Shown here piece after piece: positions 10,034 through 63,831 of a stretch of 64,000 nucleotides of DNA. The DNA lies in contig NC_042997.1 in NCBI RefSeq assembly GCF_006345805.1, positions 161,696,001 through 161,760,000 of the forward strand, read 5' to 3'. Each line of letters opens with the position of its first letter. Within the stretch, counting starts at the first letter, position 1. Source of the stretch: Octopus sinensis (lineage: Eukaryota). A program made the translations under genes and the position numbers. The notes beneath the pieces are model-generated. The model worked only from the letters and a program-made list of their open reading frames with translations, had not been told where the DNA came from and did not search any database.

Positions 10034-10063
10034 CAAAAGCAGCTTCCACCTCAGAACGAGTTT
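10034..10063 (-). CDS. Micro-exon class A (ETRSEVEAAF); last array exon before the Ig exon
   Basis: ctag|30 nt|gtgagt, phase 1-1. Confidence 0.85.
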
Positions 10064-10350
10064 CTAGCGAAAAATAAACGTAAATATATGCCCTCATTAT
10101 TTAGGTCACGTGAAAACAGTAAATATATTGAGGAAGAAGGGACGTACTTTTTTTTTTTTTCTTAATTATTACACCGTTATAAACAGTAGATGGACTTTAC
10201 AAGAATCGAAAATACTCTGAGAGAGAATATGTATACGGTTCAAACTTAGAGAAATGTAATTAGTACAATAAAAAAATATCGCAATACGATTAGAAACTTT
10301 AATATCTTATATTGATATATAATGCGAGAAACAATTTTGCAGTCGCTTAC

Positions 10351-10380
10351 CTGTACGAGTTATTTTTTCCGTTACGACCT
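10351..10380 (-). CDS. Micro-exon class B (EVVTEKITRT)
   Basis: gcag|30 nt|gtaagc. Confidence 0.85.
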
Positions 10381-12579
10381 CTGCAGGATTAAGGAAATAT
10401 ATAGTTTAATATTTCAAAAAGATAGTTTATAAACACTGTACCATTAAATGGTAACTATATTAGAACATTTGTTGAAAAACTCATGGCATTTAATCATTCA
10501 TTCGTTGTAAAATGATTCGTTGCTAAAATTTCACACACATATATACATATATATGAAGTGTATGTAAAAACAAACATATATATGTAGTATATCCTGTATG
10601 CATCTATGAATATATGCATGGATATATTCATTTAAGCATATGCGTGCGTGTGTATGTTTGCATGTAATGCAAGTAATTCGTTATATATGTAAATCTTTCT
10701 CAACGCAATACTTTCTCAACGAATGGAAATTTTCCATTTAGTTGGTGGAGTGAAAAGTAACTATTGATGATAGTTTTTAGTGACTCAACAAAAATAAACG
10801 ATAATTCAATTTCCACAGTCCAAGAAATAATGAACAGTTAATCATAAAATAAGAATTTTCATGCTTAGATTGAAACCTGATCTTTTTTAGTAACACATTA
10901 TCATCTACAAACTTGTTTTATTACACCGCGTTGGTATAGTCTAAATCCAAGCATAAATTTAAAGTATTCATGTATGTTGTCATGTACAGAATGGCGTACG
11001 CCAAAATGGTTGAGAGGCTTGTATTTTGCCATTTAGATACAGAAAGAAAACAAAAATCCATAAAGTTTTCGAAACGAGGAAAAAATATCACAGTATAAAC
11101 AATACCTTTTCTACCATTAATTTAAAGATGTCTATATCACTTTCTAATTTAGTTGTATCTTTCTATTCTATAACCTAAAGATATTTCAAAGACACAGACG
11201 AAGACAAAATAGAATAGATAATAAGAAACGAAGACAAATTTCACACCTTCAAGTTAGAAAAGTAAAAATTCTTCAAACAAAATAGAAAGCATGAAGGGAA
11301 AGCGCAAAACAAATAAAAATAGCGTGAGCGTATCTTTGTAAAGTCAGTGTTATTGCTGCTCGATAATTCTTTATAGATATGCTATATTTATATTTAGTTG
11401 AAAATGTTAAATAAAATTTAAATCATCGCTACATTTGTATTGAAACCATTATTTTCTTTAGTTTGTATTTTTAGCAATGTGTATCATAGTCATTTTCTGC
11501 TGTAACACGAGATTCATTGTTAGTGCATGTGTATATGTTTGTGTGTGTTTAAGTGAGTATACGCGCATGTGAAATTTTGTATCTGATCGAAAGTAAGAAA
11601 GTGATATATACACATATAATACATATAATGCATGTGTGTGTGTATGTCTGAGCCGGTTGTGCTTTGTTTTGCTTCATCACAAGTGTTTTTCACATATTTT
11701 TATGTAATTTAAATATGAAATGAAATTTTTCGCATCAGACTTAGTTTCTTGTGACGCCAAATTCAGTTTCTTTTACTTTTCAAATGTTCTGGCTAAAAAA
11801 CTAAATATATATTATACTAATATAATTTTAATTAAATAGTTTCCTTCTAATATATTTATTTTGCATGTAGATTTATTTCTTTGGGAAGTTCTGGTAATTC
11901 TGGTTGAGTAAATGTACTCAGGGAAGCATACTGTGCAGATGAAACATACTTAGATCTATTCAGTTATATAGGAAAGCTTCATGTCAGTTTGCTCATAAAT
12001 GCCAAATAAGTAACGGTTAATATGCGCGTTGATTTTTGTTAGTTTGACTTTAGTGATGCCTTTATATAGATGTTTTCTTATGCTGTGGAATTGACTAAAT
12101 TATTTCAATCCTTTCTGCAATGTACGTAGTGATCCAAATTGTGCTTTAAACAATTATTTCAAGATTAATACTGTTTTAGACAAATTGCATTTAGATCAAT
12201 CATATTTTAGATAAAATGTTTTCGACAAACTCGCCGGATACAATAGGAAATCATTACTAGCGAATTTGGGATCCAAGTACATAGCAGTGTCAGGCTGTTA
12301 AGAGAAACATGCCTGGCATGTAGGGAAAACTACAGCTAAGCCTTTTTGATCTTGACAAGTGTGAGTATGTATCTTTAAAATTAAATTGCAGTCTTTACAA
12401 ATGCTTACTTTGATAGGGAAATGTTACAAACTAATTTGAATTTATACTAAAAATACTACAAAAATCAGATAGTTTCGTTCTTTGAAAAAAGTGTTATCTA
12501 CGCAATTATATATTTTTAGCGATTTCTTTGCCGAAGCGAAACACTGGAAGCCATTGAAATGATTTTAAATGAAACTCAC

Positions 12580-12609
12580 CAACTGTAGATTCAACTTCAG
12601 ACGGTTTTT
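12580..12609 (-). CDS. Micro-exon class C (EKPSEVESTV)
   Basis: tcag|30 nt|gtgagt. Confidence 0.87.
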
Positions 12610-12974
12610 CTGAACGAAAGTTAATACGAAGTACAATAAGCAGGTTGTTCGATTATCTCATGCACAAAACACTTTTGTTCAAATACTTAGTTATGTAGTT
12701 ATACGCTTATAAATAGTATATCATTATAAATTTCTTACAATGGTAATGCATCTTCTAATTACTTTTAATTAGCACATGTTTTACTTTTAATATAGATTGT
12801 CTTAAAAATCATTAACTAATTTGAGAATCATTCGAAATAATTATCATTCTCTAAATATGCTATAAATTTACAAGAAAACTATCAAAATTATTCTTTAGCA
12901 TCTACGTTGAAATATTCTTTCCATAAAATTTATTTACATTAGTGAGTTCCATATTTTATAGCTAATGTGCTTAC

Positions 12975-13004
12975 CTATGCGAGATTCGGTTTCTCTAACA
13001 AATT
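12975..13004 (-). CDS. Micro-exon class D (EFVRETESRI)
   Basis: gcag|30 nt|gtaagc. Confidence 0.85.
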   Translation of the reverse strand, partial: NLLEKPNLA

Positions 13005-13361
13005 CTGCAAAATCAAAATCGTTATTCATTAATGATTACTTTCATCATTTCGTGAAAGAAAAAAAGCTTAAATAGTTTGAATTCAATTAAATTCATCAGA
13101 GAATCTAGATTGGCGTATTTGTCAGTATACTTTCATATCAATTTCTTAAGTATAACTTAATTTGAAAAATGTCCTAAAGTTCAATATTTAGTATAAGAAG
13201 GAATACTATAAATCGTATATATCAATTCATACTAAGGCAAATTACACTTCTAGTACGCATATCGATAAAAATAATAATCATTAAGAAATGTTTTACTGAC
13301 TATAATAATTCTAATAATATAGGTGCTCAATTTTCATTGAATCAATTAAGAAAACACTTAC

Positions 13362-13391
13362 GAACTGTGGCATCGACCTCAGAAGGTTGTT
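13362..13391 (-). CDS. Micro-exon class E (EQPSEVDATV; last base C)
   Basis: tcag|30 nt|gtaagt. Confidence 0.8.
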
Positions 13392-13837
13392 CTGAATATG
13401 GAATAAAAGGTGACATCAGATTTTGCACCGTGCACAAATAAAATATAGACGGACAGATGCATGAATGCATAAAAAAACTTCTCTACGCTTTTAAAATTTA
13501 ACGGTATGTTGTTCGAAACTATACAATACACTTACGTAAAAGGTATATTCGCAATTTTGAATATGTATTGAAGTTTTATGACATATGTTAGATGCGTTTG
13601 AAAAGTAGACCAATAATTGGAGAGCACTTACAAAAATTTATTTCATGCTTGAAACAATCGTGAATATTTTTTAAGGATTTTTAATAATAATGACAAATCG
13701 ATAATTTACAGGTATATGGAGATTTACATATTTAAAAATTACTTAAAATTTAGAAGTTTGAAAACAATTCTAGACGAAATCTATAGTATTGTGACTCGAG
13801 CGTATTATAGTAATAACGAAAATAGAAGATCGCTCAC

Positions 13838-13867
13838 CTTTAGGACGTTCGTCCTGTGTCACAATAT
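13838..13867 (-). CDS. Micro-exon class F (DIVTQDERPK)
   Basis: acag|30 nt|gtgagc. Confidence 0.87.
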
Positions 13868-14685
13868 CTGTGAAATTAATTGAATGAAATTGCAATTGAT
13901 TCTCAAGCATTTGTGGACAAAAAACTAAAAATGATAGTTCTTTTAATATCATACGATGTATTATGGAAAATGATTATATTGAGAAACAGTAAAGTATGTT
14001 TCAAATATTAGCAGTGGCAAATTTTGTAAACAAACTTTATGATGAATAAAAGACTGCATATGATACATTTTATCATTTTATGTATTATTTGACTAGGACA
14101 TTCAATGTATAATACTGAAACGCGATAAAGCAATAGCATTTTCACAAAAAGCATTTGCATATCATCGAGATTGTATTACTGATTATATCATTACGTACCA
14201 AGTACAATATGTCGTTTCAGCAGAATCTTTCTCTCTTTCTTTCTCCCCCTCTCTCTCTTTCTATACCTCTCTTTCTTTCATCGTTTGTCTATGATTTGGA
14301 AGTGGCTTTTGCAATGTATAGCCAATATTTAGGTACAATACCAGTAATTTCTGGTGAGAGTTAATGGATACCATCAGCCCCAGAAAAGTATCAGTTCATT
14401 ACATGAAGGGAAACAATACAAAGATGTATACACACACACACACACACATGTATATACATATATATGAAATAATTTTAGTACCTAATTCAACTGAATCTTA
14501 ATTGCCTTATATAATATATATATATCATATATCATATATACGAGAGCAGAATACAACAGGAAACTTACATCATAAATTACATAATCTTTACAAGTTTCAC
14601 TTGCGAATACTAGAATGTTGTGCGAAAATTGTTACCTAAACGATTGCATCCACCCATCTACACCCCTTGTATATATATAGATACA

Positions 14686-14767
<82 letters not shown>

Positions 14768-15131
14768 TGTATGTACGTATAATATACAGAGATAGATAGA
14801 GAGATAGAAAGACAGACAGACAGACAGACAGACAGGCAGGCAGATACTATGAAGTTCTATAATGTTTCTGTCTCCCAAATTTCATTCAAAGTATTCACCT
14901 ATTTTTATTACTAAGTTATTAAATGACTATGACTATTCCCAGTCAGAACTACTTCGTCCATCGAAAAGAGGCCATATCGTTCAAATATCTATCCAAACAA
15001 ATTTGAGGCACTTTCATTCTTTTCAAATACGATAGAATACCAGAGACTATATAAAGACAGATGAAGACATCAAAATGAAACTTAGCGACAAGCGGAAGCA
15101 AGAAATCATAAAAGAATAAACTATCACTCAC

Positions 15132-15161
15132 CAACAGTAGATTCCACCTCAGAACGTGTTT
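15132..15161 (-). CDS. Micro-exon class A (ETRSEVESTV)
   Basis: ttag|30 nt|gtgagt. Confidence 0.87.
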
Positions 15162-15467
15162 CTAATAAAAGGTAAAAGTAAAGATATACCCCCATCAATT
15201 ATATGATGCAAACAATGAAACATTGTGCGTTTTCAAATCATGAATTTCCGATATAAATTTCGACTATCCCCAAGCTGTTACACTTTATTGAGCATAATAT
15301 ATATTGAACTTTACTAAAATCGTAAATATGTTAAAAAAGGAAGTGTAAACAAAGTAGATTTTTAAAATGTAGTTACATTTCAGTAAACGATTTTAACTTA
15401 AAAATTAGAGACTTTAATATCTTCATGTTGATATACCGCTTGAAGAATAATTATTTTAGTAGCTTAC

Positions 15468-15497
15468 CTGTACGAGTAACTTTTTCCGTTACGATCT
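15468..15497 (-). CDS. Micro-exon class B (EIVTEKVTRT)
   Basis: gcag|30 nt|gtaagc. Confidence 0.87.
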
Positions 15498-17283: not shown

Positions 17284-17313
17284 CAACAGTTGATTCGACA
17301 TCAGATGGTTTTT
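17284..17313 (-). CDS. Micro-exon class C (EKPSDVESTV)
   Basis: tcag|30 nt|gtgagt. Confidence 0.87.
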
Positions 17314-17686
17314 CTGAACGAAATTGAAATACATAACAGTAAACACGATGTTCAATTATTACACACACAATTGTGCATATATTTTGTCATATGTTTAGTT
17401 ATATTATTTATACACTTACGTATTTATGTTATAAAACATTTGTCAGACCGCAGATTTCATTTTTTAACAATGTATTCTAGCTATATTTAGCTGAAAAATG
17501 CTTGTCTATCACTTATACTTAATAAATATTGTCCATAAATTAGAAAAACATAGATTTAATTATAAATACTTCCTGAAACATACTATCTTAAACTTACAAG
17601 AATACACTCTTACTCATGAGAATATACAGAAAGTATCATGAATATTCCGAAACAACACCATATGTTGTTATAGAAAAGATGCTTAC

Positions 17687-17716
17687 CTATACGGGTTTCG
17701 GTTTCTCTAACAATTT
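17687..17716 (-). CDS. Micro-exon class D (EIVRETETRI)
   Basis: acag|30 nt|gtaagc. Confidence 0.87.
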   Translation of the reverse strand, partial: KLLEKPKPV

Positions 17717-18047
17717 CTGTGAAATTAGAAACGTAATCCATTAATATTTTCTTTCACCAATTTTAAATAAAATAAATCTTTAATAGTCTTCATCAAAATA
17801 CTCAACGATATACCTGTCTATGAAATTCTATATCAATTTCGTAAGTATAATATTAAAATATTATGTAAAGTACTTCAATACTTTATATATGACATAGATA
17901 CAGGTTTATATGAAAGCAAATTGAAGTTCTAATACTCATTCTAATTAAGATGATAAATATAAAGTATTACTGAGTGACAAATTGCTACTAATAATATTGA
18001 TAATTTAACTGCCACATATTCATGAATTCAATTTAGAAATCACTTAC

Positions 18048-18077
18048 CAACTGTGGCTTCTACATCAGAAGGTTGTT
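18048..18077 (-). CDS. Micro-exon class E (EQPSDVEATV)
   Basis: tcag|30 nt|gtaagt. Confidence 0.87.
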
Positions 18078-18430
18078 CTGAATAAGGAACAAAAGATGAT
18101 GTCATCAAATTTTCAATAATAACTAGAGTATTTATGGATAAGATAGAAAAACCAAAAATATTTAAAGTTGTTCTAAACACTCATGGTTTGGAGGGATATT
18201 TCTTAACAGTATGCTTTGACACTTTGCAGTATATATCTAACAAGTTCAAAAATGTTTCGAAAGCAGAAAATATATTCTAATTGATAATTTATTGACTGTT
18301 CACGACATTATACTTTACAGGTATTCATAAGAATATAAAAATATAAATATCAATTTCTTATAAAGACATAGTTTGTAATATAATAATTCGGAGCTATTTT
18401 AGGTATTATCATAAACAGAAGCTCGCTCAC

Positions 18431-18460
18431 CTTTAGGACGCTCGTCCTGTGTCACAATAT
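18431..18460 (-). CDS. Micro-exon class F (DIVTQDERPK)
   Basis: atag|30 nt|gtgagc. Confidence 0.87.
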
Positions 18461-19185
18461 CTATAAAATGATTGAATGAAATTGCAATTAAAACTCATGC
18501 ATTTATGAATGTATTACTAAAGATGTTTTTGTGCAAATAAACCTTAACTTTATAATGTGTTACTACTTCAACAGTAAACATCACAATTGTGAAAACTGTT
18601 TTTATTTCAACACTATTAAGCTCAAAATTAATTCCATTTAACTGTTATGGAATGCAATACACATATATTGTAAAAAGGGGTAACTGTAATTCAAATACTA
18701 GCACACGCTAAACTGTCATACAAACTTGATATTGAATTAGAATATTGAAGAATAAACATTTTAAGTGAGACTTCGGTGTATAATACTGATAAGCGATGAA
18801 GCAACACGGCATTCAAAAATGCGTTTACATACTATAGTTATTATAGTAATAATCATGTTATTGACTCTATGATTCTGTAACTGAAATATTCATGCTACAT
18901 TGCAATAACGCATTTATTTCCTAAATTATCAACAAATTAGTTGAATGTAAACGGTTCATATTTGCTTTATTATCACGTTTTTTAATGAAAAGTAGGATTT
19001 GACATCGCATTTATTTAACAAATTAAATAGAGTTAATAATGTTTTTTCAGGTTATATCAACAGAATTGGAATAACGTTAGTTATTCTTACATCATAGAGT
19101 ACAAATACAAAAACAGATGAAGATTCTTAAAAAGAAAATCGTGACGAGCAGAAGCAAGAAATCATGAAAATAATCTCTCACTCAC

Positions 19186-19215
19186 CAACTGTAGATTCCA
19201 CTTCAGATCGTGTTT
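19186..19215 (-). CDS. Micro-exon class A (ETRSEVESTV)
   Basis: ccag|30 nt|gtgagt. Confidence 0.87.
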
Positions 19216-19558
19216 CTGGAGAAACGTAAACGTAAACGTAAATATATAATCCTATCAGTTATATCATTCAGAATAATATTGCAAAATTTAAACGTGAAAT
19301 TAATGTCGCATACTTTTCGAGAACTGAGATTAATCTTGAGTACTTTTCGAAATCGAAATCTTTACGAAATATTCTTTAGGTTATATTCCCATAACTAATT
19401 TTGTAAATTGTAGTCGAAATTTACTAGAAATAGAACTCTTAAAGAATTTGCAAATTGATTAGATGTAGAAAAATTGATAATATTTAAGGATGTAAATATA
19501 GTAGAAATATAATTATATTGAATTTAGGTGATACATAGTATCTTTGCCTGTAGCTTAC

Positions 19559-19588
19559 CTGTACGAGTTACTGTCTCGGTTACCATTT
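19559..19588 (-). CDS. Micro-exon class B (EMVTETVTRT)
   Basis: acag|30 nt|gtaagc. Confidence 0.87.
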
Positions 19589-22023: not shown

Positions 22024-22053
22024 CAACAGTAGATTCAACACCAGACGGTTTTT
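22024..22053 (-). CDS. Micro-exon class C (EKPSGVESTV)
   Basis: ttag|30 nt|gtgagt. Confidence 0.85.
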
Positions 22054-22416
22054 CTAAACAAAATCAAAGCAAAATACAATAAGCACGTTGCTAACGTGCG
22101 AAAAGACGCATTTGTAAATCTAGTGTTTCATAATTAATCAGTTTTGAACATTTATTACGCATTTGCGACGCTGATACTTCGATTCTTTAACAATACATAT
22201 GCAATATTTCATTGAAGCATGTTTACGCCAGTCATATATGCTTTACGTATATATTACCAAATAATAATAATAATAATATATGAGAATCATTGAAGCAATT
22301 TACGAATGTTTTTAAATATATTAATTTACAAGAAAACTAACAATTATTCACGAGAATAAACGGCAAGTATAAAATGTATTTTAAAGATACTATGGTGTTA
22401 TAGCAAAGGTGCTTAC

Positions 22417-22446
22417 CTATGCGAGATTCGGTTTCTCTAATAATTT
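22417..22446 (-). CDS. Micro-exon class D (EIIRETESRI)
   Basis: acag|30 nt|gtaagc. Confidence 0.87.
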   Translation of the reverse strand, partial: KLLEKPNLA

Positions 22447-22772
22447 CTGTGAAATTCAAAACGCATATCATTAGCTATCTCTTTCACCATTATGCAAAGA
22501 AACAATTCTTAAAGTTTCGATTAATTAAATGTATTAGAGAAATTGTACATAGATAATATTCAGTATACGTTTCTATCATTTCTTAAGTATAACTTAAAAA
22601 CATTGTTGATATTTAATATCTGAGGAAATATTGTAAGTCATACAATTATAATTCTTGTACTTCTTCCAATATAAATAATAAATTTATAACATTAATAATC
22701 AATGTTATACTATTACAAACAGTAATAACAGAGTTGCTAATTTTTTCTGGAGGCAAATTAGAAGACACTTAC

Positions 22773-22802
22773 CAACTGTGGCTTCAGCCTCAGAAGGTTG
22801 TT
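22773..22802 (-). CDS. Micro-exon class E (EQPSEAEATV)
   Basis: tcag|30 nt|gtaagt. Confidence 0.87.
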
Positions 22803-23047
22803 CTGAATATGGAATAAAAGATGTCATCAGGTTTTGCACCATGTACATATACAATACAACATGGGATAGATAGTTTTAAAATTAAAATAATACTCTAGTT
22901 AGACATTTGTGGAAGTTTGATAACTAATCGTAACCAAATGATTACGAAGTAATTTCAAACGCAATATATTCAGCAAGTATATTATACTATTCAATATTAG
23001 TTGCACATCATACATTACGGACACTCATGAGAATGTGTGTTGATATA

Positions 23048-23123
<76 letters not shown>

Positions 23124-23302
23124 AGAGAGAGAGAGATACACACACATATATATGTATGTATATATTGATGTGTGTGTGTGTTTTGATACTGATATTGGTA
23201 TATCAATATTGATATTATTACTTAAATTGAAATAGTTATTTTCGAAATAATTACAGCGATAATCTAAACTCAAGGTATTATCGTAAACACAAGTTCGCTC
23301 AC

Positions 23303-23332
23303 CTTTAGGACGCTCATCTTGTGTCACAATAT
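23303..23332 (-). CDS. Micro-exon class F (DIVTQDERPK)
   Basis: acag|30 nt|gtgagc. Confidence 0.87.
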
Positions 23333-24070
23333 CTGTGAAAAGAATCGAATGAAATTACAGTTGATTTGTGGGCATTCTTGAATAGCTAAAATCGTTATCT
23401 CCACTAATATATAGATATAAACTTTAGTGTTACTCTTTCTTTGGTACCCGTCATAGTTGTGAGAAACCTTGTTTCAAGGGATTTCAGTATTATTTCAGCA
23501 TATGTTTGCGGCCCATATTACAGCGCATAAAAGAGACATTCATTCAAATATAACTGTGCCAGCGAATCAATATGCATATATTTAGTCTCAAACGAGCAAC
23601 TAAATGACAAATAATAGTACTCGCTACTTTACGATGGACTAAAATCGAAAATTGTTGATGTATTACAAAAGGATATCGTCAAGGTATAACATTCAAATGC
23701 GATGAAGCAACACACCATTCAAGAAAGCAGTTAAATACTATCGTTATATATTAAAAATTCTATTATTGCTTAATGGCTCCTGTTTTCTTTTCCAGTAAAA
23801 TATATGTTCTACTATAACTGTATATGTATTTCATAAATTATCAGTAAAATCTTTGTATATAAAACGTTCATATCAGGTTTTTAAATGAAAATTAGAATTA
23901 TATGATTTGTATACTTTACGATTTGCATAGATTAACTATCTTTGGAACAAATTTAGTCTTTCTTACACCATAGAATACAACAACTACACAAGAATAGATG
24001 AAAATTTCTAAAAAGAATGTCAGAGATAAGCAGAAGCAAAACATCACGACGAAAATAATCTCTCACTCAC

Positions 24071-24100
24071 CAACTGAAGATTCCACTTCGGAACGTGTTT
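24071..24100 (-). CDS. Micro-exon class A (ETRSEVESSV)
   Basis: ctag|30 nt|gtgagt. Confidence 0.87.
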
Positions 24101-24416
24101 CTAGTGTAAAGTAAATGCAAATATATAACCTGATTAGTTACACCATACACAAAAAACTGATAAGTAGTAAAAATATTGAGAAAATTGATTATTACCCTGT
24201 GGTTTTTAAAAACCTTTCTTTGCAAAATATCATTTTGGCCATACACCCCACCCAAAGCATTAAGTTACTAGAATTGGAAATATTTTAATAAATGATGTCT
24301 AAATTGAGAGATATAGAAAATATGATAGCATTTTAGTACTTAAACATAACGGAAGCAGAAGCTTATTAAATTTATGTGGATATGTAGCGTGAATAACGTT
24401 TCTTCCTGTAGCTTAC

Positions 24417-24446
24417 CTGTGCGGGTGACTTTCTCTGTTACAACCT
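24417..24446 (-). CDS. Micro-exon class B (EVVTEKVTRT)
   Basis: acag|30 nt|gtaagc. Confidence 0.87.
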
Positions 24447-25429: not shown

Positions 25430-25459
25430 CAACTGTAGATTCGACGCTTGATGGTTTTT
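25430..25459 (-). CDS. Micro-exon class C (EKPSSVESTV)
   Basis: tcag|30 nt|gtgagt. Confidence 0.87.
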
Positions 25460-25795
25460 CTGAACAGAATTAAAATAAACAATAATAAGTATATTGTTCG
25501 ATCATTACACGAACAAACACGGATTTGTGAAAATTTATTCAAATCATTTGTTATATAATTATGAATTTAATATTTACTATCGTAACATCCATATAACCCT
25601 GAAGATTTCATATTTTAAATATATTTAAAATAGGGTATGGTTACGCATCATATATACTTTACAGATATTACCAAATTACCTGACAAAACATTAGCCCGAC
25701 TTTAAAAGAAAAATTATACTTTAAAGAGAATATATGGAAGTATAAAATATATTCCAGAAAAAATAGACGTAAGCTATTAAAGCAAAGTTGCTTAC

Positions 25796-25825
25796 CTATA
25801 CGAGATTCGGTTTCTGTAATAATTT
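25796..25825 (-). CDS. Micro-exon class D (EIITETESRI)
   Basis: acag|30 nt|gtaagc. Confidence 0.87.
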   Translation of the reverse strand, partial: KLLQKPNLV

Positions 25826-26042
25826 CTGTGAAATTAAAACGTAATTCATTAACAATCACTTTCACAGTTTCATAAAAGAAACAATTCTTAAAAAATCTTT
25901 ATTCAATAAGATATTATCAGGAAAGTGATATGTATATAGTCCCCAGTATAGGTTTCAATCAATTTCCTAACTACAGTTTAATATTATTAAAAAGAGGAAT
26001 TAAGTTGTTAAAAATTGCAACGAATATATACGTATACATACA

Positions 26043-26136
<94 letters not shown>

Positions 26137-26185
26137 CATGTGTTTGTGTATGTGTGTGTGTGTGTGTTATGGGAAAGGCGCTAAT

Positions 26186-26215
26186 TTATATGCGATTCTG
26201 TTCTGAAATAGCTTA
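26186..26215 (-). pseudogene. Dead duplicate of a class-D micro-exon (pseudo-exon)
   Basis: Flank (acgtaat..ctctttcacc..ttcataaaagaaac) matches class-D flanks, but both splice sites are lost. Confidence 0.55.
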
Positions 26216-26564
26216 TATTCTAAATAAACAACGTAATACCATAACAAGCTCTTTCACCACTTCATAAAAGAAACTATACTTCAAGAATCTGGATCCAACA
26301 ACATATTAAAGTAGCGATTACCAATTACGCATATTCATATGTTTCTATCAAGATTTTAAATATAATTTAATATAAATTCATCATATGTAAGTTGAATATT
26401 TAATATAGAGCAAAATACTATCAATAAAAATTTATATATAGATCAGGTACTATTCTAATACACCATCCAATATGTATAATAATCTTAAAACTGATGATGA
26501 TATACTAAAAATGATATTCTGAAGATGTTTTCTACATCTTCACAGAATCAAATAAGACACTTAC

Positions 26565-26594
26565 CAACTGTGGCTTCGGCCTCAGATGGTTGTT
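26565..26594 (-). CDS. Micro-exon class E (EQPSEAEATV)
   Basis: tcag|30 nt|gtaagt. Confidence 0.87.
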
Positions 26595-27038
26595 CTGAAT
26601 ATGGAATAAAAGACAATATCATCAGGTTTTGCAACAAGCACAAATAAGATATAAATAGACTATCAAGTTTACAGTGTGGAAATATTTTTGTAGGATATTG
26701 TGAAATATTATAAAATAGCTTTCCGTGATATTCATTACCACAAATTAAAAATGGTTTGAACGACTGAAGGTATGTTCCACATGAAAATATTTTGGAAGGT
26801 AGGCTTTAAATTGTAAAACTGAATGAAGATGGTATCGAAAATGGTGCAATTGATAGATTATATATCCACCACACCACAGAAATTGTGCAATATTCTTTAT
26901 GGATTTTAATGCAAGATGTAACGTACACATGTACAAATATATGAATGTATTTATACATATGTATGTACATATATAAATGTATATATGAATATGTATATGT
27001 ATAAATCGAGATCTATAACTATCTATATACATATGATC

Positions 27039-27094
<56 letters not shown>

Positions 27095-27173
27095 TGTGTG
27101 TGTGTGGTGTGTGTGTGTGTGTGTGAATATACGTGTGCATATATGCATATCTCGTAAATAGAAGCTCTCTCAC

Positions 27174-27203
27174 CCTTTGGACGCTCGGTTTCTGTCACAA
27201 TAT
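27174..27203 (-). CDS. Micro-exon class F (DIVTETERPK)
   Basis: acag|30 nt|gtgaga. Confidence 0.85.
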
Positions 27204-45616: not shown

Positions 45617-45646
45617 CTGTGCGTGTTACTTTTTCCGTTACAACTT
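45617..45646 (-). CDS. Micro-exon class B (EVVTEKVTRT)
   Basis: acag|30 nt|gtaagc. Confidence 0.87.
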
Positions 45647-47721: not shown

Positions 47722-47751
47722 CAACAGTAGATTCAACTTCAGATGGTTTTT
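47722..47751 (-). CDS. Micro-exon class C (EKPSEVESTV)
   Basis: tcag|30 nt|gtgagt. Confidence 0.87.
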
Positions 47752-48096
47752 CTGAACGAAATCAAAATAAACTACGATAAGCATGTTGCTAAATTATTCG
47801 ACGGGAAATGATATAATCTGTAAATGTTTGTTCATATTTCTTCTTAAGTAATAGACCGCCAATGACCTTTGCAAAATGCATTTCTTACAATTATACGCTA
47901 ATAAGTTAACATTATTTATATTCGATCTGTATTTGAATGCCTTCAATATAGATTTATAATTATTTGATAAAACAACGCGTTCACTAAACAAATGCAGAAT
48001 TCGCGAATTTACGAGAAAACATTCTTACAGGAATGTATGCGGTCAGTATATATTGAATTTTAAGTTACGCTATGCTATAATATCAAATCTTCTTAC

Positions 48097-48126
48097 CTAT
48101 GCGAGTTTCGGTTTCTCTGATAATTT
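48097..48126 (-). CDS. Micro-exon class D (EIIRETETRI)
   Basis: acag|30 nt|gtaaga. Confidence 0.87.
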   Translation of the reverse strand, partial: KLSEKPKLA

Positions 48127-48483
48127 CTGTGAAATTCAAAACGTAAATCGTTAACTATGTCGTCGATCATTTCATAAAAGTCACGATTTTTAATGACGTT
48201 TCATACAATTAAGTATTACCAAGGAGGTGACGCACGAAAACACGTAGGTAAATATTTCTATCAATTTTGCTTATATAATTTAACATGAAAATGTTATGTA
48301 GGAATTTGGTAATTTCGATATAAAAGAAAACCACAACAATCAGTTATTAACCGAGACATTAGTTTTCGAGTACATCTCCCACTATAAATATATAGTAATT
48401 TCAAAATTAATAATGATGTACTATAACTAGTAATCATAAGAGATTTGTTAAATTAAAACGGTACCAAATTAGGAGACACTTAC

Positions 48484-48513
48484 CAACTGTGGCTTCGGCC
48501 TCAGATGGTTGTT
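48484..48513 (-). CDS. Micro-exon class E (EQPSEAEATV)
   Basis: tcag|30 nt|gtaagt. Confidence 0.87.
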
Positions 48514-48908
48514 CTGAATATGGAATGAAAGACATTATCATCAGCTTTTGCATCACATACAGATATAATATACGTAGACAGATAACCAAACATTCATTCA
48601 CAACAATACACCTACCTATTTTAAAGATATATTTCATAAAGCTATGCAAAATAATGCGGGACAATATATTATCTTGATTTGAAAGTGTTTTCAGTATGAC
48701 AATAAATGTTCATTCCATCATTTGCAAAGGAGTCAACAAACAGTAACTTTTGTAAAAGCGACGTCGCCTTTGATATATTACAAGCATATATCAACTTTAC
48801 TACATTCATTTCGATTAATATGTTACGCTTTCCAAACAAATTATAGTTAGCTAGTTAAACAGAAACCTAGGTCTATTGAGATAAGTTCGTAAACTGAAGC
48901 TCTCTCAC

Positions 48909-48938
48909 CTTTAGGACGCTCGTCCTGTTGCACAACAT
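48909..48938 (-). CDS. Micro-exon class F (DVVQQDERPK)
   Basis: acag|30 nt|gtgaga. Confidence 0.87.
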
Positions 48939-49772
48939 CTGTGAAATAATTAAATGATATATCAATTTCATGCTGATCAACACATGACTAATCTCTACAA
49001 ATATATCAATCTACTTTTGCAATTGCAAAGCTTTTCAAAAACCGATTGCCCTTGCATGATTCGCTTTATTCTTTCTGTACGATTTCATTTTACACATTTA
49101 AAGCGCACATAAAATATATCGAAATATTTATTGCAATTACTATTTTACACGGTAGTGCGATGTGAATATATTCTGCGATGAGTTACTTTCTCTCCAATTA
49201 ATCATAGGCACTACAATTTTAACATGATAAATTTACACAATATATTTGAGATGCGGTAAAGTAACCGAGAATTCATTAATATATAAGTAACATTTTATCT
49301 CTAGTAATATATCCATGTAATTTTGCAATCTTAATATTGTTTACTTGCTGCAATGTCTTTATTCTTTCAGTTCGATTTCAGTTTTTATATTTTAAGCCCT
49401 GAGAAATTATATCGAAATATTTTTTGCAATTGTTATTTCCACGGTAATACTCTGTGAATATATTTAGAAACGATTTCGTTTTTTACCACTAATACTTTTC
49501 TCTAATTAACCATACGTACTTCTGTTTTAATATGATAAATTTAATGATTTTATTTTAGATTCAGGAGCCGTCAAAATTTACAGCGTATATTTCTAATAAT
49601 GGATAAAGCAATACAGCATCTCAATCTTTTACATACTATCTTTCCTATAGTCCTCATTATCTTACTTCGTAACGCATTATTATTCTCTTTCTACAAGTAC
49701 ATTTGAAGACTTCTCGAAGGAAACTCAGCGATAAGCAGAAGCAACAAATCACGAAAATTATCTCTCACTCAC

Positions 49773-49802
49773 CAACTGTAGATTCCACTTCAGTACGTGT
49801 TT
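49773..49802 (-). CDS. Micro-exon class A (ETRTEVESTV)
   Basis: ctag|30 nt|gtgagt. Confidence 0.87.
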
Positions 49803-50094
49803 CTAGAGAAAGGCAAACGTAAATATATTCCCTCAACAGACGGTGGACATCACACAGAATATATGAGTGACAGGCATTAAATTTATTCAACTCGTGTAGA
49901 ATATTTCAAATGATAAATTTACGAAAACTACTCTTTACACAGTTTACTAAAATGTTAAATGTTTACATGTATAAGATATTAGCTGCGTAATCGAAAAAAA
50001 TTCGCTTTCATTTTACTAAACAATTATCGCAGAAATATTTGTTACATCTAGTTTGTTGATACACATCGCGAGATAAAATCCTTCAATAGCTTAC

Positions 50095-50124
50095 CTGTAC
50101 GAGTTACTTTTTCCGTTACGACTT
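50095..50124 (-). CDS. Micro-exon class B (EVVTEKVTRT)
   Basis: acag|30 nt|gtaagc. Confidence 0.87.
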
Positions 50125-52109: not shown

Positions 52110-52139
52110 TAAGCTTAGATTCCACTTCAGAACGTGTTT
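52110..52139 (-). CDS. Diverged micro-exon class A (ETRSEVESKL; last base A), possibly decaying
   Basis: ctag|30 nt|gtgagt; 3' codons diverged. Confidence 0.6.
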
Positions 52140-53668: not shown

Positions 53669-53698
53669 CCACGGTAGATTCAACTTCAGACGGTTTTT
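53669..53698 (-). CDS. Micro-exon class C (EKPSEVESTV)
   Basis: tcag|30 nt|gtgagt. Confidence 0.87.
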
Positions 53699-54062
53699 CT
53701 GAACAAATGTTAAAATATATTAGCTATAAGCAAGTTGTTCAACTATTCATGAATACACGTGATTCTATTCGATATATTTACATAAAAATATACAGTTTTA
53801 TGTATTTAAATTGTAATATTACCCAAGTAGAATGTTAAATGATCAAACTGACATTAACATATTAACAATATATCTTCTTAGAAATATTAAATGGAGCGTT
53901 TCAGATGTTAAAAACGATTACGTTTAATCAGAAAATTTTCGGAGTAATTCAGAAATATTTCCTAATTATATTTTCACATGAAAACCTTCGATATAATAAA
54001 TATTGTAGAATATCTAGCGTTAAAATTAGTGGAGATTATATTGATATAGCAAATGCGCTTAC

Positions 54063-54092
54063 CTATGCGAGATTCGGTTTCTTGAATAATTT
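54063..54092 (-). CDS. Micro-exon class D (EIIQETESRI)
   Basis: acag|30 nt|gtaagc. Confidence 0.87.
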   Translation of the reverse strand, partial: KLFKKPNLA

Positions 54093-54435
54093 CTGTGAAA
54101 TTAACAAAGGAATCAATTAACTATTGTTTTCATTATTTCGAGAAAAAACCCCAGCGAATCTTAAACTGTGTTGTACCAGATAATTTATGAATGAATCTAC
54201 ACGGAAATATACATCAATATGTACGTTCACATGAATTTCTTAACACGGTTTTTATTATGGCAAGCATGTTGTAATATTTTATATTACATATTAGTTCATA
54301 TTAAGGCAAACTAACATTTTACTAATCATCCCAATATAAACAACAATTACTAAAATAAAAAGTAATTTTATTAGAATAATAATAATAATGATAACAGTTG
54401 CTCTATTTTAAGGAGTCGGTTTAGGAGACACTTAC

Positions 54436-54465
54436 CAACTGTGGCTTCAACTTCAGAAGGTTCTT
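54436..54465 (-). CDS. Micro-exon class E (EEPSEVEATV)
   Basis: tcag|30 nt|gtaagt. Confidence 0.87.
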
Positions 54466-54906
54466 CTGAATGTGAATAAATAAAAATTATGCTATTAGAT
54501 TTTTACACCTCATAGAAATGAAAACAAAAATAAAAATATAGGAAGAGCACACTTCCAATATTTGCCTAAACTTCCATAGTTTTCGGGATATTATAGGATA
54601 CAATGATCTGTCCTTATGCATTGTTATATTCACTGTTTTCAACTAAGTATGGAACATTAAGTATATATTCCAGTAACGTGTTTATGTATCCTATTCCAGG
54701 AATAGCAACAAATTGATATAAATTGATTTTATGCTAGAAACAATTTTGAATTATTATTTATATTTTGAAATAATAGTTGTGTATTCACATTTTATAAAAT
54801 TCATATGAATGAAAATTAAAAGAGTAATTTGGAAACAATTACAGAAACAGTTTCTAATAAAAGTTCATATTTATTCTAGTATTATCGAAAATATAACCTT
54901 GCTCAC

Positions 54907-54936
54907 CTTTGGGACGCTCTTCCTGTGTTACAATAT
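54907..54936 (-). CDS. Micro-exon class F (DIVTQEERPK)
   Basis: acag|30 nt|gtgagc. Confidence 0.87.
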
Positions 54937-55685
54937 CTGTGAAATTTAATAAAGTGAAATTGCGATTAATAAATACAATTGCAATTGTACATCTATAAAT
55001 TTGACTGCTAAAATCGCTATTCCTGCTAGTATTTGAATATAAATGTATAATATATTACTGTTTATAACTGTACGTATTGCTTTTGTAAGCAAGAATATTT
55101 CAAGCAACTTGATTCAATATTATGTATGTTTTAAACATAGGCACATTGTATTTATATATAAAAAAAACATTGATATCTAATTAAATTGCATTATGGTAAG
55201 TACTTTTATAGTTAAACGATCGACACATTTTAGTATATGTTCTTGCTAATTCAAAATACAAATGTTGTAAAGTACTAAAAAAAACAAATACACAATATAC
55301 GAATTACGTGACTAGAACCACCCTAATATAACACACAAAAACGACTAACACTGTACGACATCCACAGCAACTTTTTCAGAATATTCGCGTTATATGATAT
55401 TAGTCCAAAATATACGGTATCTGACAAAAGGTAATATATATTGTAAATTGTCTACGAAATAGTTCACTAGAAATGCTTATACGTGTTTTTATTCATAAGT
55501 TATCGCCTAAACTTTACAAGATACTGTAAAACATCATTCACCAATCAAAGATTATATAAAATTCTTTGGAAAAGTATCCACACGAATGCTCAATACATTT
55601 ATTCTCTCTCAACAACGTAGGAACGACACAAAACTATACGCAGACAAGCAGAAACAAAGAATTATTGCAACAATCTCTCACTCAC

Positions 55686-55715
55686 CAACTGTAGATTCCA
55701 CTTCAGAACGTGTTT
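55686..55715 (-). CDS. Micro-exon class A (ETRSEVESTV)
   Basis: atag|30 nt|gtgagt. Confidence 0.87.
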
Positions 55716-56015
55716 CTATAAAAAGGTGAACGTAAAAATATAAACCCATCAGTTTCATCATACAAACATTAAATATATAGTGGATCGAATAGTAATTTTA
55801 GTTTACTCTTAGAAATCATTTATTTCCGAAATACAATATTTTAAACTAGATGATTAAAGTATTATAAAAATGAAAGTAAAATTGAAAATACTTTCATAAT
55901 GGGTGTACAAATTCAGATGTATGAAATTTAGTATATTTCAAAACGAATATCGCAGAATTTTCTATTTATAGTCATGTTGATACATTCGCTATGAAACAAT
56001 TCTGTAGTAACTTAC

Positions 56016-56045
56016 CTGTACGGGTTACTTTTTCTGTTACGACTT
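56016..56045 (-). CDS. Micro-exon class B (EVVTEKVTRT)
   Basis: acag|30 nt|gtaagt. Confidence 0.87.
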
Positions 56046-57639: not shown

Positions 57640-57669
57640 CAACTGTAGATTCGACTTCAGAGGGTTTTT
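57640..57669 (-). CDS. Micro-exon class C (EKPSEVESTV)
   Basis: tcag|30 nt|gtgagt. Confidence 0.87.
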
Positions 57670-58401: not shown

Positions 58402-58431
58402 CTGTATGAGTCACTTCCTCCGTTACGACCT
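58402..58431 (-). CDS. Micro-exon class B (EVVTEEVTHT)
   Basis: acag|30 nt|gtaagc. Confidence 0.83.
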
Positions 58432-58869: not shown

Positions 58870-59545
58870 ATCGTAACTGCCTCGCTGGTTATAGGTGAGA
58901 CGACAAAAAATTCCACTGGTTGGTTCAATTGTCTGTGTTCCAACAGGATGGTAAAGATATTTTTGAACTGGTCATTCAGGACCTCACTGATTATCCGCTA
59001 TCTGTGAGTGAACCATCCTTCTGGAAGAAGGATCCTATTTTGCAGCGTACTGAGGCTGTTTCTTTGACATAATGAAAGAAAGCCTTTGGGTTTGATTTGA
59101 TGTATTTTATAACCCATGATTCATTGTCTGCTTTCTCCTTCATATCGGATTATTACTCCATCAGTGTTGTCCTTAGGCGAAACCTTTCACTACTTTTGAG
59201 AGGTAGGTTGATGCAATTTGCAACCTTCGTCCATCTCATAACAGTCTTCCTCTCCCTTTGATTCTTGCTCCTTTTTTGTGTTGGCCTTGTGCTCTAGGAC
59301 ATATTTCTGGCATATGGTTTGCATAATAGACATAAAATATTCTAGTTTCATGCCAATGTCTGGTGTGGAGAAACACTTTGACCAGTCCTGTCTGAGGATC
59401 TCCTTTTGGATCGATTTCCAGTCTTTTATGTGGAAGTTCAGGTTGGACAGATTTTGGGTGCTTCCTTTAGGCTGTATGTCTTTGGCTACTTTTGGTCAAT
59501 ACACAGACAACTCTATTATGTTGGGATCCGAAACGAATGTCCGCG
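58870..59545 (-). mobile_element. Decayed CR1/L2-group LINE ORF2 fragment (end of endonuclease to pre-RT region)
   Basis: Minus strand: SDPNIIEL..LNFHIKDWKSIQKEILRQDWSKCFS..IKSNPKAFFHYVK. Confidence 0.75.
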
Positions 59546-60426
59546 TCACTTTCACAGTATGAACAATGTCTATATATATAACAACAACAACAACAACAAT
59601 AATAATAATAATAATAATAATGATAATATATGTATATATGGGTACGGGACGTCACCAACTGTGTAAACAAGATGAAATACGAAGACAAACGTGTTAAATA
59701 CGTAAACAACGAGAGAAAATGGAAAACATGACAAATAAACACAGAGAAACGACCCTTCGTCAGTTGTCGGCTGTCTATCTACTCCTTATTTCGAGCATTC
59801 AACGACAATATGAGTCTTCAAAGACATTTGCTCCCATAAATTCTAAAATAAAATTCAGGATTTATGGCGGGACAAAGTTGGGAACAAAAACAGGACAGTG
59901 GAGACATACAAGGAAACCGAACGAAAACAATCATGGAAGATCGTTAGACCAAAATGAGAGGAAAATAGTAAACGTTGGGAGAAATAATTTCTTTTGAAAG
60001 AGAAAAGATAGAAGAGGTACTGAAAGTTAAGAAAATACAAATTCTCCAATCAGAGTATAATACATGAACAGAAAGCGCAATGCCAAGTGAAAAACAATAC
60101 CAACATATTTTCGCGACAGCCAGCATTATATAATGAAATCTGGTTTAATATGTTTCGTAAAATTCAGACAATCGTTATGAAGGATTAATGCATTTTCCTG
60201 TAGAACAAGGCTTGTTTCTCTGTAGAACATTGTTTGTTGTTATTGTGTGTGAATGCTTTCGTGTCCGGAATTTCGCATTTTGAATATGTCTGTGACTTTG
60301 TTCAGCTATGAAATACATTAATTATTTGCGTCATTGTACATCTCTTCCTGTATATCTGCTATAACCCACAGTTGATGGTGAAGCCAAACATTAAAAGCAA
60401 CAGAAATTATTGCAAATAAAACTCAC

Positions 60427-60456
60427 CAACAGCAGATTCAACTTCAGATGGTGTTT
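60427..60456 (-). CDS. Micro-exon class C variant (ETPSEVESAV)
   Basis: tcag|30 nt|gtgagt. Confidence 0.8.
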
Positions 60457-60785: not shown

Positions 60786-60815
60786 GTATCTAAGATTTGA
60801 CTTTGGTAGTGATTG
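60786..60815 (-). pseudogene. Dead class-D micro-exon (donor lost, in-frame TAG)
   Basis: gcttaa-gtatctaagattt..gattg-ctatgaaatt..acgtaat aligns to the class-D context at the usual ~330 nt from a class-C exon. Confidence 0.55.
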
Positions 60816-62558
60816 CTATGAAATTTACGACGTAATCAATACCATATTGTTTACTGCAATGCATAAGCAGTATGATTATACAGTATGATCCAGATGGTCC
60901 TTTAGTATTTAAATACTATATAAAATTATGTTTAATTATGTTATAGTTATGTTGTTATATATTTTTAATACTGCTTTTGTGTCTGAGTGTAACATGGTTC
61001 CCATGTGAAGGAGTTCTGAGCTGTTGTTTAATATGAGTATTTGTTGTTATTTCATTTACCAAGTCTAAATCTATATAACGAAAGATCCTTAAGGAAGAGA
61101 ACGTGTGTGTCTAAGAAAAAAACCGCAATTATTAGTATCTTATGGATAGATACTAGTCAAACTTTTTCATTCTTAACTGCAACATTGTCAAACACATTAA
61201 CAGTTCTATTATTAACCCTGTACTGTATTCTTTGAATTGGGGATTGATCCCACCAAACGAGAGCTTGGACACGAGTAAGTTTACATAATTTCAGGCTGAT
61301 CAAAAACTTTTCGAATTTAGTAATCGGAAACTGTGAAATATGTCGCAATGTTCATTCTTGCTCTTGGGTGCTAGATTTAATCTGCCAACCGCTTTAACAA
61401 CACAAACAATTGCTTACAACAGATTTAAATCACAACACAATCGAATCCGTTGCAAAGATTTGGACCTAGTTTCAGATAACTTCCTATTTTCATCCCTAGT
61501 TCCCTAGTTCCGTAAAACTGGGGAAAATAATAGGCACTTCTCGTTCATCCTTCAGTAAATTAGAAATATATATGTACATGAATGGACGTATGAATGTACA
61601 TGTGTGTGTGTGTGTATGGTAAACACTTTTCTTATATTCCCTCCTATTTAAATAATAGGATTTTTATTACTAGCACTACATTAAAAGAGGAAAGGGTGAT
61701 CATTTCAAATTACACATTAAATGAGGACTTTTTCATTACAATTAAGAGGATAACAATAACCTTAGTAAAAACACAAAAATTGTCAAATATAAATCAATAT
61801 AGCAACAACGGAAGCAAGAAACAAGAGAACAATGTCGACAACAGTTCTTCAGAATAAGTATTACATACAAATAATATGATATAGCTATATATATATGTAG
61901 AAACGTGTTGATCTTATATAGAATCTAATTTTTTATATGCACTGTTCATAAAGCTAATATACATTAGCTGTTGACAGTATAGTTAGTGCAATAGCTATGT
62001 AACATATCTGGCTTGTTTTAAAATTATATGAAGGGTATGCTACAAATGTTTAGAGGATATGGAGTAATGGCAACGTTAATCCTGTAACTTCCGTGTTCAA
62101 AAAAGTTTTAAAACTTTACAAATAATACGGAGCATTGCAGTAACAAATATATTAAGCTGCAAAACGGAGAGACGTTATACATTGGCCATAATTACATTGA
62201 GGAAGAAGAATAAAACAAAAGGATGTAATCATGTTCGTAAATAAGCATAATAATTATAAAACCATGTTGATTAATACACAGGAAGCGAAAATGTTGCCTA
62301 CAAACCAGACCACTGGAATTAAGCGCACTAGAAGAGTAGAATTATCTCGCATTTGTAATTTGCAATGCATTGCATCATATTTATTAAGGATTATGCACAT
62401 TGATGAGCGTTTATGCGTGCATATTATAACAGGCAGATCTATATAATATAAATGCCTGAAATCATAAGTAATCCGTGTATTTAAATGCCTAAATTTTACA
62501 TATAGGATAGTGAAGTCAAACATAGAAAGCAACTGAGATTATTTCATATGCCACTCAC

Positions 62559-62588
62559 CAAATGTGGATTCAACTTCAGATGGTTTTT
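62559..62588 (-). CDS. Micro-exon class C variant (EKPSEVESTF)
   Basis: acag|30 nt|gtgagt. Confidence 0.83.
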
Positions 62589-63481
62589 CTGTGCGAAATT
62601 AAAATAATATTCATTAACTGTTATTGAAATATCATATAGGCACACGCACATACACGTTCACACGCGTCGAAGACACACATTCAATCTTTCTGAAATGCTA
62701 TCTATATGAACATATGTAAATGCACATATATGTTGGTATATATGTATACCTATAAATACATGTTAAAGAAATCAAATTAATGCAGCTGTGACAAAATTAC
62801 AGATTTAATGCGAACAATGCATTATTTATACCATTATGTTAGAAACTGAGATACACACGAGCAAAAGAAAAGTTTTGCCGTTGAAGTTGACGTGACTGTG
62901 AAAAGTATAGATGCATATAGCGCACTTTTTATGGAAGATTTGAATGATATTTCGAGAAAGTTGAGCAACCACATAGTGAATAGCGCATTACTTAACGTTC
63001 GCGCGCTTGTGTGTGTGTGTGTCTGTGTCTGTGTCTGTCTGTCTGTGTTTTTGTGTGCGCGCGCTTGTATGCTTTGCTCAATTAGGCGTAAGGTTAGAGT
63101 TACTGGGCTAGGAGCAAGCATTATGTAACCCTAAATCCTAGTCGTATATAAATTTAAAACCGTATTCTCGTAATTGAAAAGTCAAATCTTCAAGCTTCAG
63201 TGAATAGGTCTTATTCTGTACAGCTTAAACAAATTACACACTCTGTCAACAATGAAAATATATCGAACCCACTTTATTAATCGCAATATTTCCTACACTT
63301 ATGACTACTTGTACATCATTGAATTATGAACAGTATATCTTGTAATTGATATTATAGAATATGCTCGAAATTTAAGTTCACAATTTGTAATTACTACAAT
63401 ATATAATCAAGTAAAAATTAAATAGAAGTTATTTAAGAAATCCTGTCAGAATTTGGAGTATCTAGTGAAAATATTGCTTAC

Positions 63482-63511
63482 CTCCACGAATAATGGTTTC
63501 CTTTATAATTT
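63482..63511 (-). CDS. Divergent class-D-like micro-exon (EIIKETIIRG)
   Basis: acag|30 nt|gtaagc. Confidence 0.8.
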
Positions 63512-63807
63512 CTGTGAATTCAACCAAATTCATAATTAGCGTGTTAATTAACATATTCTAATAATTAGTCAAATATATACACTATATTTACTTTACTAGC
63601 ACAGTTATTTTTCTGGGAGAATTAAACCTAATTTTCAGTTAGAAATAAAGATCAAATAATATATTTAATCAAAAGTTTAATCCAAAATGAATTTTTCATA
63701 ATAAGCGTTCTTTTTTCAAGTGTATTTTGTAGCAGATGTAAGGAAAAATATTAGCCGAAAAATCAAATATTAATCGTTCGCATCAATCAGTTTATAAGCA
63801 AACTCAC

Positions 63808-63831
63808 CAATCGTTTCAGCATACGGTCGAT
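63808..63831 (-). CDS. 24-nt micro-exon of a different type (DRPYAETI)
   Basis: tttccatctag|24 nt|gtgagt, phase 1-1, open frame. Confidence 0.7.

Follow-up and report, generated by a model that had tools for sequence, protein, structure and literature searches.

An ordered array of 210 micro-exons in Octopus sinensis that may encode an extensible spacer of an obscurin/UNC-89-like protein

Introduction

The UNC-89/obscurin proteins combine SH3, RhoGEF, PH, immunoglobulin (Ig)/fibronectin type III (FN3), and kinase domains (PMC12812942; PMC2196875). Obscurins are described as heavily spliced, and UNC-89 carries an entropic-spring segment (PMC12812942). The PEVK regions of titin and projectin are alternatively spliced, and the projectin PEVK includes exons of 24 and 33 nucleotides (nt) among others, with up to 21 alternative exons (PMC3835035). 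Here we describe a locus of Octopus sinensis in which a long, ordered array of micro-exons leads into an Ig exon, most likely within an obscurin/UNC-89 gene. The analysis started from a 64,000-nt stretch, hereafter the window (contig NC_042997.1, designated C1; C1:161,696,001-161,760,000), to which 800 kb of neighbouring and related sequence was added for the whole array.

Micro-exons occur in several other settings. Schistosome micro-exon genes contain runs of short symmetric exons and encode small secreted variable proteins, and the PEVK exons of titin are about three times longer than the octopod micro-exons. In flies, neural micro-exons are dispersed, with UGC motifs and weak splice sites (PMC8797185).

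Results

A first-pass annotation of the window had listed 67 minus-strand exons, 66 measuring 30 nt and the other 24 nt, flanked by AG and GTRAG, in phase 1-1, and repeating in six classes. A strict scan for YAG, a pyrimidine tract, n bases, and GTRAG, with n from 9 to 120, returned 64 minus-strand matches at n = 30 versus one on the plus strand, while other lengths gave zero to nine; 100 local shuffles yielded a mean of 0.64 and a maximum of three matches of the 30-nt pattern. Two additional 30-nt exons (63482-63511 and 31067-31096) were recovered by a profile scan, and with both scans the listed set was obtained exactly. The class counts (A 11, B 11, C 13, D 11, E 10, and F 10) were reproduced with two borderline exons placed by position, as was a 267-nt, phase 1-1 I-set Ig exon at 3598-3864. 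The order F-E-D-C-B-A holds generally, but is irregular at the window's 5' end, and B and A are missing from one unit. Contrary to what had been supposed, the array is not complete at 67 exons and continues past the edge of the window. It comprises 210 intact micro-exons over 205 kb, running from C1:161,910,808 to 161,706,034 between two tandem-Ig blocks, and the window exons are one third of it.

Among the 210 exons, 200 are of 30 nt, five of 27, four of 24, and one of 21; all are bounded by AG and GT, and the median intron is 541 nt. Four damaged copies exist besides: one has lost its donor, one is 29 nt long (possibly an assembly indel), and two contain stops. The four 24-nt exons can serve as markers, each being preceded by a Trp-containing 30-nt exon; they are spaced by 60, 43, and 17 index steps, with 66 exons beyond the last. 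An exact pattern for class A, the one class searched genome-wide, matched 12 times, always in this array, and no excess of 30-nt exons was seen in 60 kb of a second contig (C2) or in 140 kb further downstream. A reading of the window micro-exons based on open reading frames was rejected.

The exons behave as coding sequence. In-frame stops of the phase-1 frame are absent from all 210, while the other two frames are interrupted in 88 and 118 of them, and a conceptual join of the whole array to the Ig exon is stop-free; the frame continuity that had been claimed is thus borne out, and the splicing itself is a prediction. Third codon positions are the most variable in all six classes, and exon identity is 83-88% versus 37-62% in flanking intron (without gaps). 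Among copies, nonsynonymous (pN) and synonymous (pS) divergence were 0.097 and 0.314, with a dN/dS of 0.26 (0.16-0.59 by class), a ratio drawn from non-independent pairs of 169 regular-class exons after 41 of the 210 were excluded as irregular. The micro-exons are under purifying selection for protein, and they are almost certainly coding and spliced.

An NCBI gene model of Argonauta hians (P0002) shows conservation of the repeat between octopod lineages. Its first 480 residues can be divided, in exon register, into 48 units; 47 have ten residues, and the remaining one has eight, like the 24-nt exon. The mean identity of these units to their best-matching octopus unit is 0.79, a best-of-many figure, and the first unit matches at 3 of 10 positions. 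The repeat runs on into an orthologous Ig that is 80% identical to the window Ig. Searching a representative protein library with the Ig exon gave 155 proteins, vertebrate obscurins among the top scorers; 11 had a window rich in Glu, Thr, Val, and Ser, and an ordered repeat was recognized by eye in P0002 only. None of 8,000 shorter candidate proteins carried the repeat at E <= 1e-5, and an ESM Atlas search gave no usable match.

Tandem duplication is evident at three levels, namely the exon pair (20 residues), the six-exon unit (60 residues), and the blocks between markers. Because identity between duplicated segments ranges from 64% to 99%, the array is partly old and still expanding, and it is still gaining and losing copies. 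The 210 exons encode 95 distinct peptides. At the 5' end of the array (C1:161,890,929-161,906,487), a distinct 39-residue unit consists of one 27-nt and three 30-nt exons, and its copies are 87-95% identical, introns included.

Turn-bearing exons (A, C, and E) alternate with beta-branched ones (B, D, and F) in 164 of 172 adjacent regular pairs, and the class cycle is kept in 150 of the 172 steps; same-type junctions join two turn-bearing exons eight times and two beta-branched exons never. The functional unit appears from this pattern to be the exon pair of 20 residues. Any exon can be joined to any other without a junction stop, as computed, and decayed copies indicate that exon loss is tolerated. 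By analogy with related systems, regulated skipping is a plausible prediction. If it occurs, the strict alternation implies steps of 20 residues or of whole blocks rather than a free 30-nt ladder.

A different possibility, to which we give less credence, is that splicing is constitutive and yields one long spacer, whose symmetry and number result from germ-line duplication and loss and whose length differs by species rather than by tissue. Symmetry appears to be the default of the gene, because all 40 intact Ig exons examined, each encoding a single domain in a tandem I-set arrangement, are also in phase 1-1; tandem exon duplication needs symmetry in any case. GTRAG donors follow 204 of the 210 micro-exons versus 8 of the 40 Ig exons. 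TGC occurs at -20 to -3 in 20 of 209 introns, below the mid-intron rate, and RBFOX motifs, by what we take to be their consensus, are not enriched near the micro-exons. Strong donors without UGC or RBFOX enrichment fit constitutive inclusion, and a neural micro-exon programme was rejected given the donors and the lack of UGC enrichment. The 66 exons past the last marker, as against 30 units after the marker of the Argonauta model, would also suit a length fixed by species, although that model may lack exons missed in annotation. On the other side, decayed copies suggest that single exons can drop out harmlessly, and titin-family spacers and obscurins are usually alternatively spliced (PMC3835035; PMC12812942). 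Regulated length variation is, in our judgment, slightly favored. The idea of free 10-residue steps or combinatorial isoforms, put forward in the first-pass annotation, has lost ground to the default symmetry, the alternation of types, the strong donors, and the unenriched motifs.

Joined together, the exons encode 2,084 residues with a net charge of -0.16 per residue and a calculated contour length of about 750 nm. The composition is 24% Glu, 16% Thr, 14% Val, 10% Ser, 7% Ile, 7% Arg, 4.7% Pro, and 4.2% Lys; Glu, Thr, Val, and Ser sum to 64%, and Pro, Glu, Val, and Lys to 47%, chiefly Glu and Val. Aromatic residues and Cys account for 1.4% of the repeat, and FoldIndex was -0.19 for the repeat and +0.12 for the Ig. 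The segment is probably for the most part disordered and extensible. The earlier picture of a disordered, charged spacer of ~668 residues feeding the Ig domain thus survives as coding, charged, modular, and probably disordered, with a length of up to about 2,084 residues. Its likening to a PEVK spring survives as a comparable role to the titin and projectin regions; PEVK membership by composition was rejected on the low Pro and Lys contents.

A weaker yet real rival to the extensible spacer is a structured repeat, in which each exon pair would provide a 15-residue beta-strand and a 5-residue turn, forming a long amphipathic beta-meander or a partner-bound tandem beta-zipper that keeps length in reserve and unzips strand by strand. 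The hydropathy spectrum is strongest at period 2.0, with 5.5 times the power of the next peak, a further peak lies at period 20, and the two faces are split, one with 41% Glu and the other with 77% Thr/Val/Ile/Ser and 2% Glu. A turn-bearing exon was never lost alone (0 of 172 pairs), while the other type was lost in 8 of 172, and AlphaFold2 modeled, across much of the repeat in one P0002 fragment, strands of 15 residues separated by gaps of five. However, that single-sequence model had a mean pLDDT score of 45.5 with no residue at 70 or above, its control Ig came out unfolded, and AlphaFold2 is said to invent beta folds for repeats (PMC11795689). The unfolded segment is favored for these reasons. 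The negative charge and FoldIndex also speak against a folded repeat. When 13 hairpin registers were compared, the two richest in opposite-charge pairs reached 9% and 12% and none stood out clearly, and Foldseek found no match to the model at E <= 0.001. On balance the structured repeat is doubtful, ranking somewhat behind constitutive splicing.

The surroundings of the array suggest its host. Upstream lie 17 Ig-coding frames. The downstream block has 26 Ig exons that are intact, and beyond it the same strand carries, in order, SH3, RhoGEF, PH, Ig/FN3, a kinase, Ig-FN3, and a second kinase; RhoGEF, PH, fn3, and Pkinase were assigned by Pfam. The SH3 domain lies directly ahead of DH-PH and is of the obscurin type, matching the human obscurin SH3 (1v1c) best at E 1.2e-19, against 8.8e-6 for the next structure. 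The SH3 domain of UNC-89 reportedly binds paramyosin. Pkinase exons occur at C1 161.389-161.396 Mb and 161.363-161.372 Mb, with I-set and fn3 in between. Given the SH3, RhoGEF, PH, Ig/FN3, and two kinases downstream, the host is most likely obscurin/UNC-89, and the array very probably shares a gene with the SH3-RhoGEF part. Ig before RhoGEF is presented as the chordate form and RhoGEF first as the ecdysozoan form in a 2026 review that does not mention molluscs (PMC12812942). The mollusc locus appears to show the chordate-like order.

It is improbable that the array belongs instead to a separate titin-like or OBSL1-like Ig-spacer-Ig gene upstream of a shorter obscurin starting near the SH3. No annotated protein joining the Ig block to the SH3 was found in our Ig and SH3 protein searches, the latter yielding one protein from 38 candidates and covering proteins of up to 2000 residues, which excludes full-length cephalopod models; a single gene is therefore something we infer. 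The best matches of 43 octopod Ig domains were 34 in a twitchin/titin-like C2 locus, eight in vertebrate obscurin, and one in nematode UNC-89, and they do not separate an ancestral from a convergent layout. However, the exon of the last Ig closes with a phase-1 donor; a bridging exon compatible with the frame lies 6 kb beyond it, and from there the SH3 exon is 1.4 kb away. The layout of vertebrate obscurin also has tandem Ig ahead of SH3-DH-PH, each domain in an exon of its own (PMC2196875). The C2 locus itself (C2:91,630,001-91,690,000) is another giant Ig/FN3 gene of the twitchin or titin type, and most Ig domains of the array locus find their best match in its Ig at 91,672,369.

Recognition diversity created by combining exons, in the manner of Dscam or schistosome micro-exon genes, is very unlikely. 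The stop-free junctions and 95 distinct peptides would permit it, but the copies are homogenized and under purifying rather than diversifying selection, the order is strictly kept, and the host resembles an intracellular muscle scaffold. A non-coding tandem repeat or assembly artefact, to which segments 96-99% identical over 2-5 kb and the 29-nt copy might point, was rejected and is largely refuted, with at most the exact copy number open to change, since stops are absent from one frame only, third positions vary, Argonauta conserves the repeat, and the nearest copy (flanks included) of 148 of the 210 exons scores below 0.8.

Within the window, the micro-exons and the Ig exon lie on the minus strand and are given in transcript order. 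The strict scan placed an 8-residue, 24-nt marker exon at 63808-63831, and the divergent, D-like exon found by profile scan follows at 63482-63511. Four 30-nt exons between 57640 and 62588 are C 62559-62588, C 60427-60456, B 58402-58431, and C 57640-57669; a decayed copy at 60786-60815, with an in-frame stop and a lost donor GT, stands outside the 67. The first six-exon unit (53669-56045) contains B 56016-56045, A 55686-55715, F 54907-54936, E 54436-54465, D 54063-54092, and C 53669-53698, and is followed by an isolated A exon at 52110-52139. For the units that follow, each exon is 30 nt and its low coordinate is given. Six-exon units extend over 47722-50124 (B 50095, A 49773, F 48909, E 48484, D 48097, C 47722), 42240-45646 (B 45617, A 45255, F 44668, E 44233, D 43851, C 42240), 37168-39708 (B 39679, A 39313, F 38710, E 37947, D 37566, C 37168), and 33433-35699 (B 35670, A 35306, F 34706, E 34212, D 33831, C 33433). 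The last of these lies within a recent duplication, 32574-34595 being 99.0% identical to 36308-38330. Another six-exon unit (28603-32037: B 32008, A 31644, F 31067, E 29350, D 28987, C 28603) precedes the four-exon unit without a B-A pair (25430-27203: F 27174, E 26565, D 25796, C 25430). Three complete units remain, at 22024-24446 (B 24417, A 24071, F 23303, E 22773, D 22417, C 22024), 17284-19588 (B 19559, A 19186, F 18431, E 18048, D 17687, C 17284), and 12580-15497 (B 15468, A 15132, F 13838, E 13362, D 12975, C 12580). The final two micro-exons are B 10351-10380 and A 10034-10063, and the Ig exon at 3598-3864 is the first of the 26 of the downstream block, which continues toward SH3-RhoGEF-PH beyond the window. 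Weak, probably decayed exon-like sequences flank it at 109-138, with a linker-type acceptor, and at 4231-4287. Intronic remnants at 42941-43366 and 59190-59997 resemble what we take to be a mariner-type transposase and a retroelement frame.

The rest of the locus holds further repeats. A second micro-exon family, of 15 intact and four decayed 30-nt linker exons, occupies C1:161,664,573-161,694,920; each intact linker follows an Ig exon of the downstream block, and P0002 has one such linker among 15 Ig domains. Several Ig exons of this block (C1:161,670,000-161,691,000) contain stops or frameshifts, which may reflect either decay of these copies or assembly indels. An isolated 24-nt phase-1 exon candidate was noted at C1:161,946,139-161,946,162, where it is flanked by two Ig exons of the upstream block. 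Between PH and kinase 1 there are 17 FN3 frames (C1:161,418,735-161,597,748), far above described obscurins; two of the FN3 frames, at 161,438,788 and 161,439,988, are 1.2 kb apart with equal scores and may represent a recent or false duplication. After the PH, a 340-residue open frame (L029:3935-4954, L numbers being our handles for loci) has a Pro/Glu/Val/Ala/Lys repeat in which Pro, Glu, Val, and Lys make up 73%, and it appears to be a more classical PEVK-like segment of the same gene. Kinase domains were located at L069:5999-6493 and L067:6037-7145. Kinase 2 lacks what we take to be the canonical catalytic-loop Asp and DFG motif, both present in kinase 1, and so may be a pseudokinase. An inactive first kinase has been discussed for another invertebrate (PMC12812942).

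Discussion

We suggest that the array is a spacer module built by exon duplication inside an octopod obscurin/UNC-89 gene, with the array and its flanking domains forming one transcription unit. Once spliced, it would place an acidic and mostly unfolded chain, at most about 2,084 residues long, in line with the tandem Ig domains; like PEVK in titin, this chain could serve as an entropic spring or an extensible tether reaching out from the M-region end of obscurin. The weakest step is that its length would vary by muscle type through skipped blocks or pairs, rather than through free shuffling of single exons. As a whole, this obscurin spacer, extensible and varied in length, is assigned a probability of roughly 0.55. 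Several points weigh against it. Besides the default symmetry, the needs of duplication, the strong donors, the missing protein across the Ig-SH3 junction, and the restricted sample behind dN/dS, the repeat is poor in Pro and Gly and has a dominant period-2 hydropathy, unlike classical entropic springs. Additionally, P0002 is not independent proof of splicing, because its source pipeline mixes ab initio, RNA, and homology evidence that includes Octopus proteins (PMC12682272).

A bolder form of the spacer hypothesis, which we consider unlikely, would make octopod obscurin the main tunable elastic filament of obliquely striated muscle. About 105 two-exon modules, spliced to muscle-specific lengths, would then determine in steps of 20 residues how far hydrostat muscle reaches and how stiff it is when passive. 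Each module would contribute either one beta-strand with a turn or a Ca2+-sensitive stretch of acidic chain, 20 residues long.

The literature searched gave no answer on the molecular basis of passive elasticity and spacing in obliquely striated cephalopod muscle, for which this locus offers a candidate and a possible counterpart, in soft-bodied muscle, of the titin spring. No published description of the array was found in full-text searches of a literature set that lacks most subscription papers. If the locus is one transcription unit, the view of Ig before RhoGEF as the chordate form needs revision. Four classes alone (210 micro-exons, 15 linkers, 40 Ig exons, and 17 FN3 frames) amount to at least 282 exons, and 210 consecutive exons of at most 30 nt are an extreme case for splicing that ordinary annotation is likely to miss. 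Human OBSCN has 119 exons (PMC12812942) and titin 363 (PMC12198301).

Compared with known systems, the octopod array most likely functions as a PEVK segment does, though its probable host is obscurin and not titin. Neural micro-exons of the Srrm234/eMIC type are likewise very short and frame-preserving, but here donors are strong and UGC lies upstream of just 20 of 209. Unlike schistosome micro-exon genes, the octopod exons form an ordered repeat with a dN/dS of 0.26 in a giant protein with RhoGEF and kinases. With obscurin/UNC-89, the locus shares SH3-DH-PH, Ig/FN3, two kinases flanking Ig-FN3, one Ig per exon, and near-identical Ig clusters (PMC2196875). In contrast to vertebrate obscurin, where tandem Ig domains are described as mostly linker-free (PMC2196875), the Ig chain is interrupted here by as many as 2,084 spacer residues, Ig exons of the downstream block are followed by intact 30-nt linkers in 15 cases, and kinase 1 comes after 17 FN3 frames. 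The elastic segment of UNC-89 is also a disordered spring within an obscurin, but it is reported as inter-kinase and 647-742 residues long (PMC12812942), whereas the octopod segment belongs to the N-terminal chain of Ig domains and consists of an ordered repeat encoded by exons. The PEVK regions of titin and projectin are likewise low-complexity, charged segments made of many small exons between tandem-Ig blocks of a giant muscle protein. They differ in host gene and composition, with Glu 24%, Thr 16%, Val 14%, Ser 10%, and little Pro or Lys in the octopod repeat, and projectin has up to 21 alternative exons where the octopod has 210 near-uniform 30-nt exons in a strict cycle. The exon-array spacer of a titin-family protein has a precedent in PEVK, and the octopod obscurin array is an unusually large instance of it.

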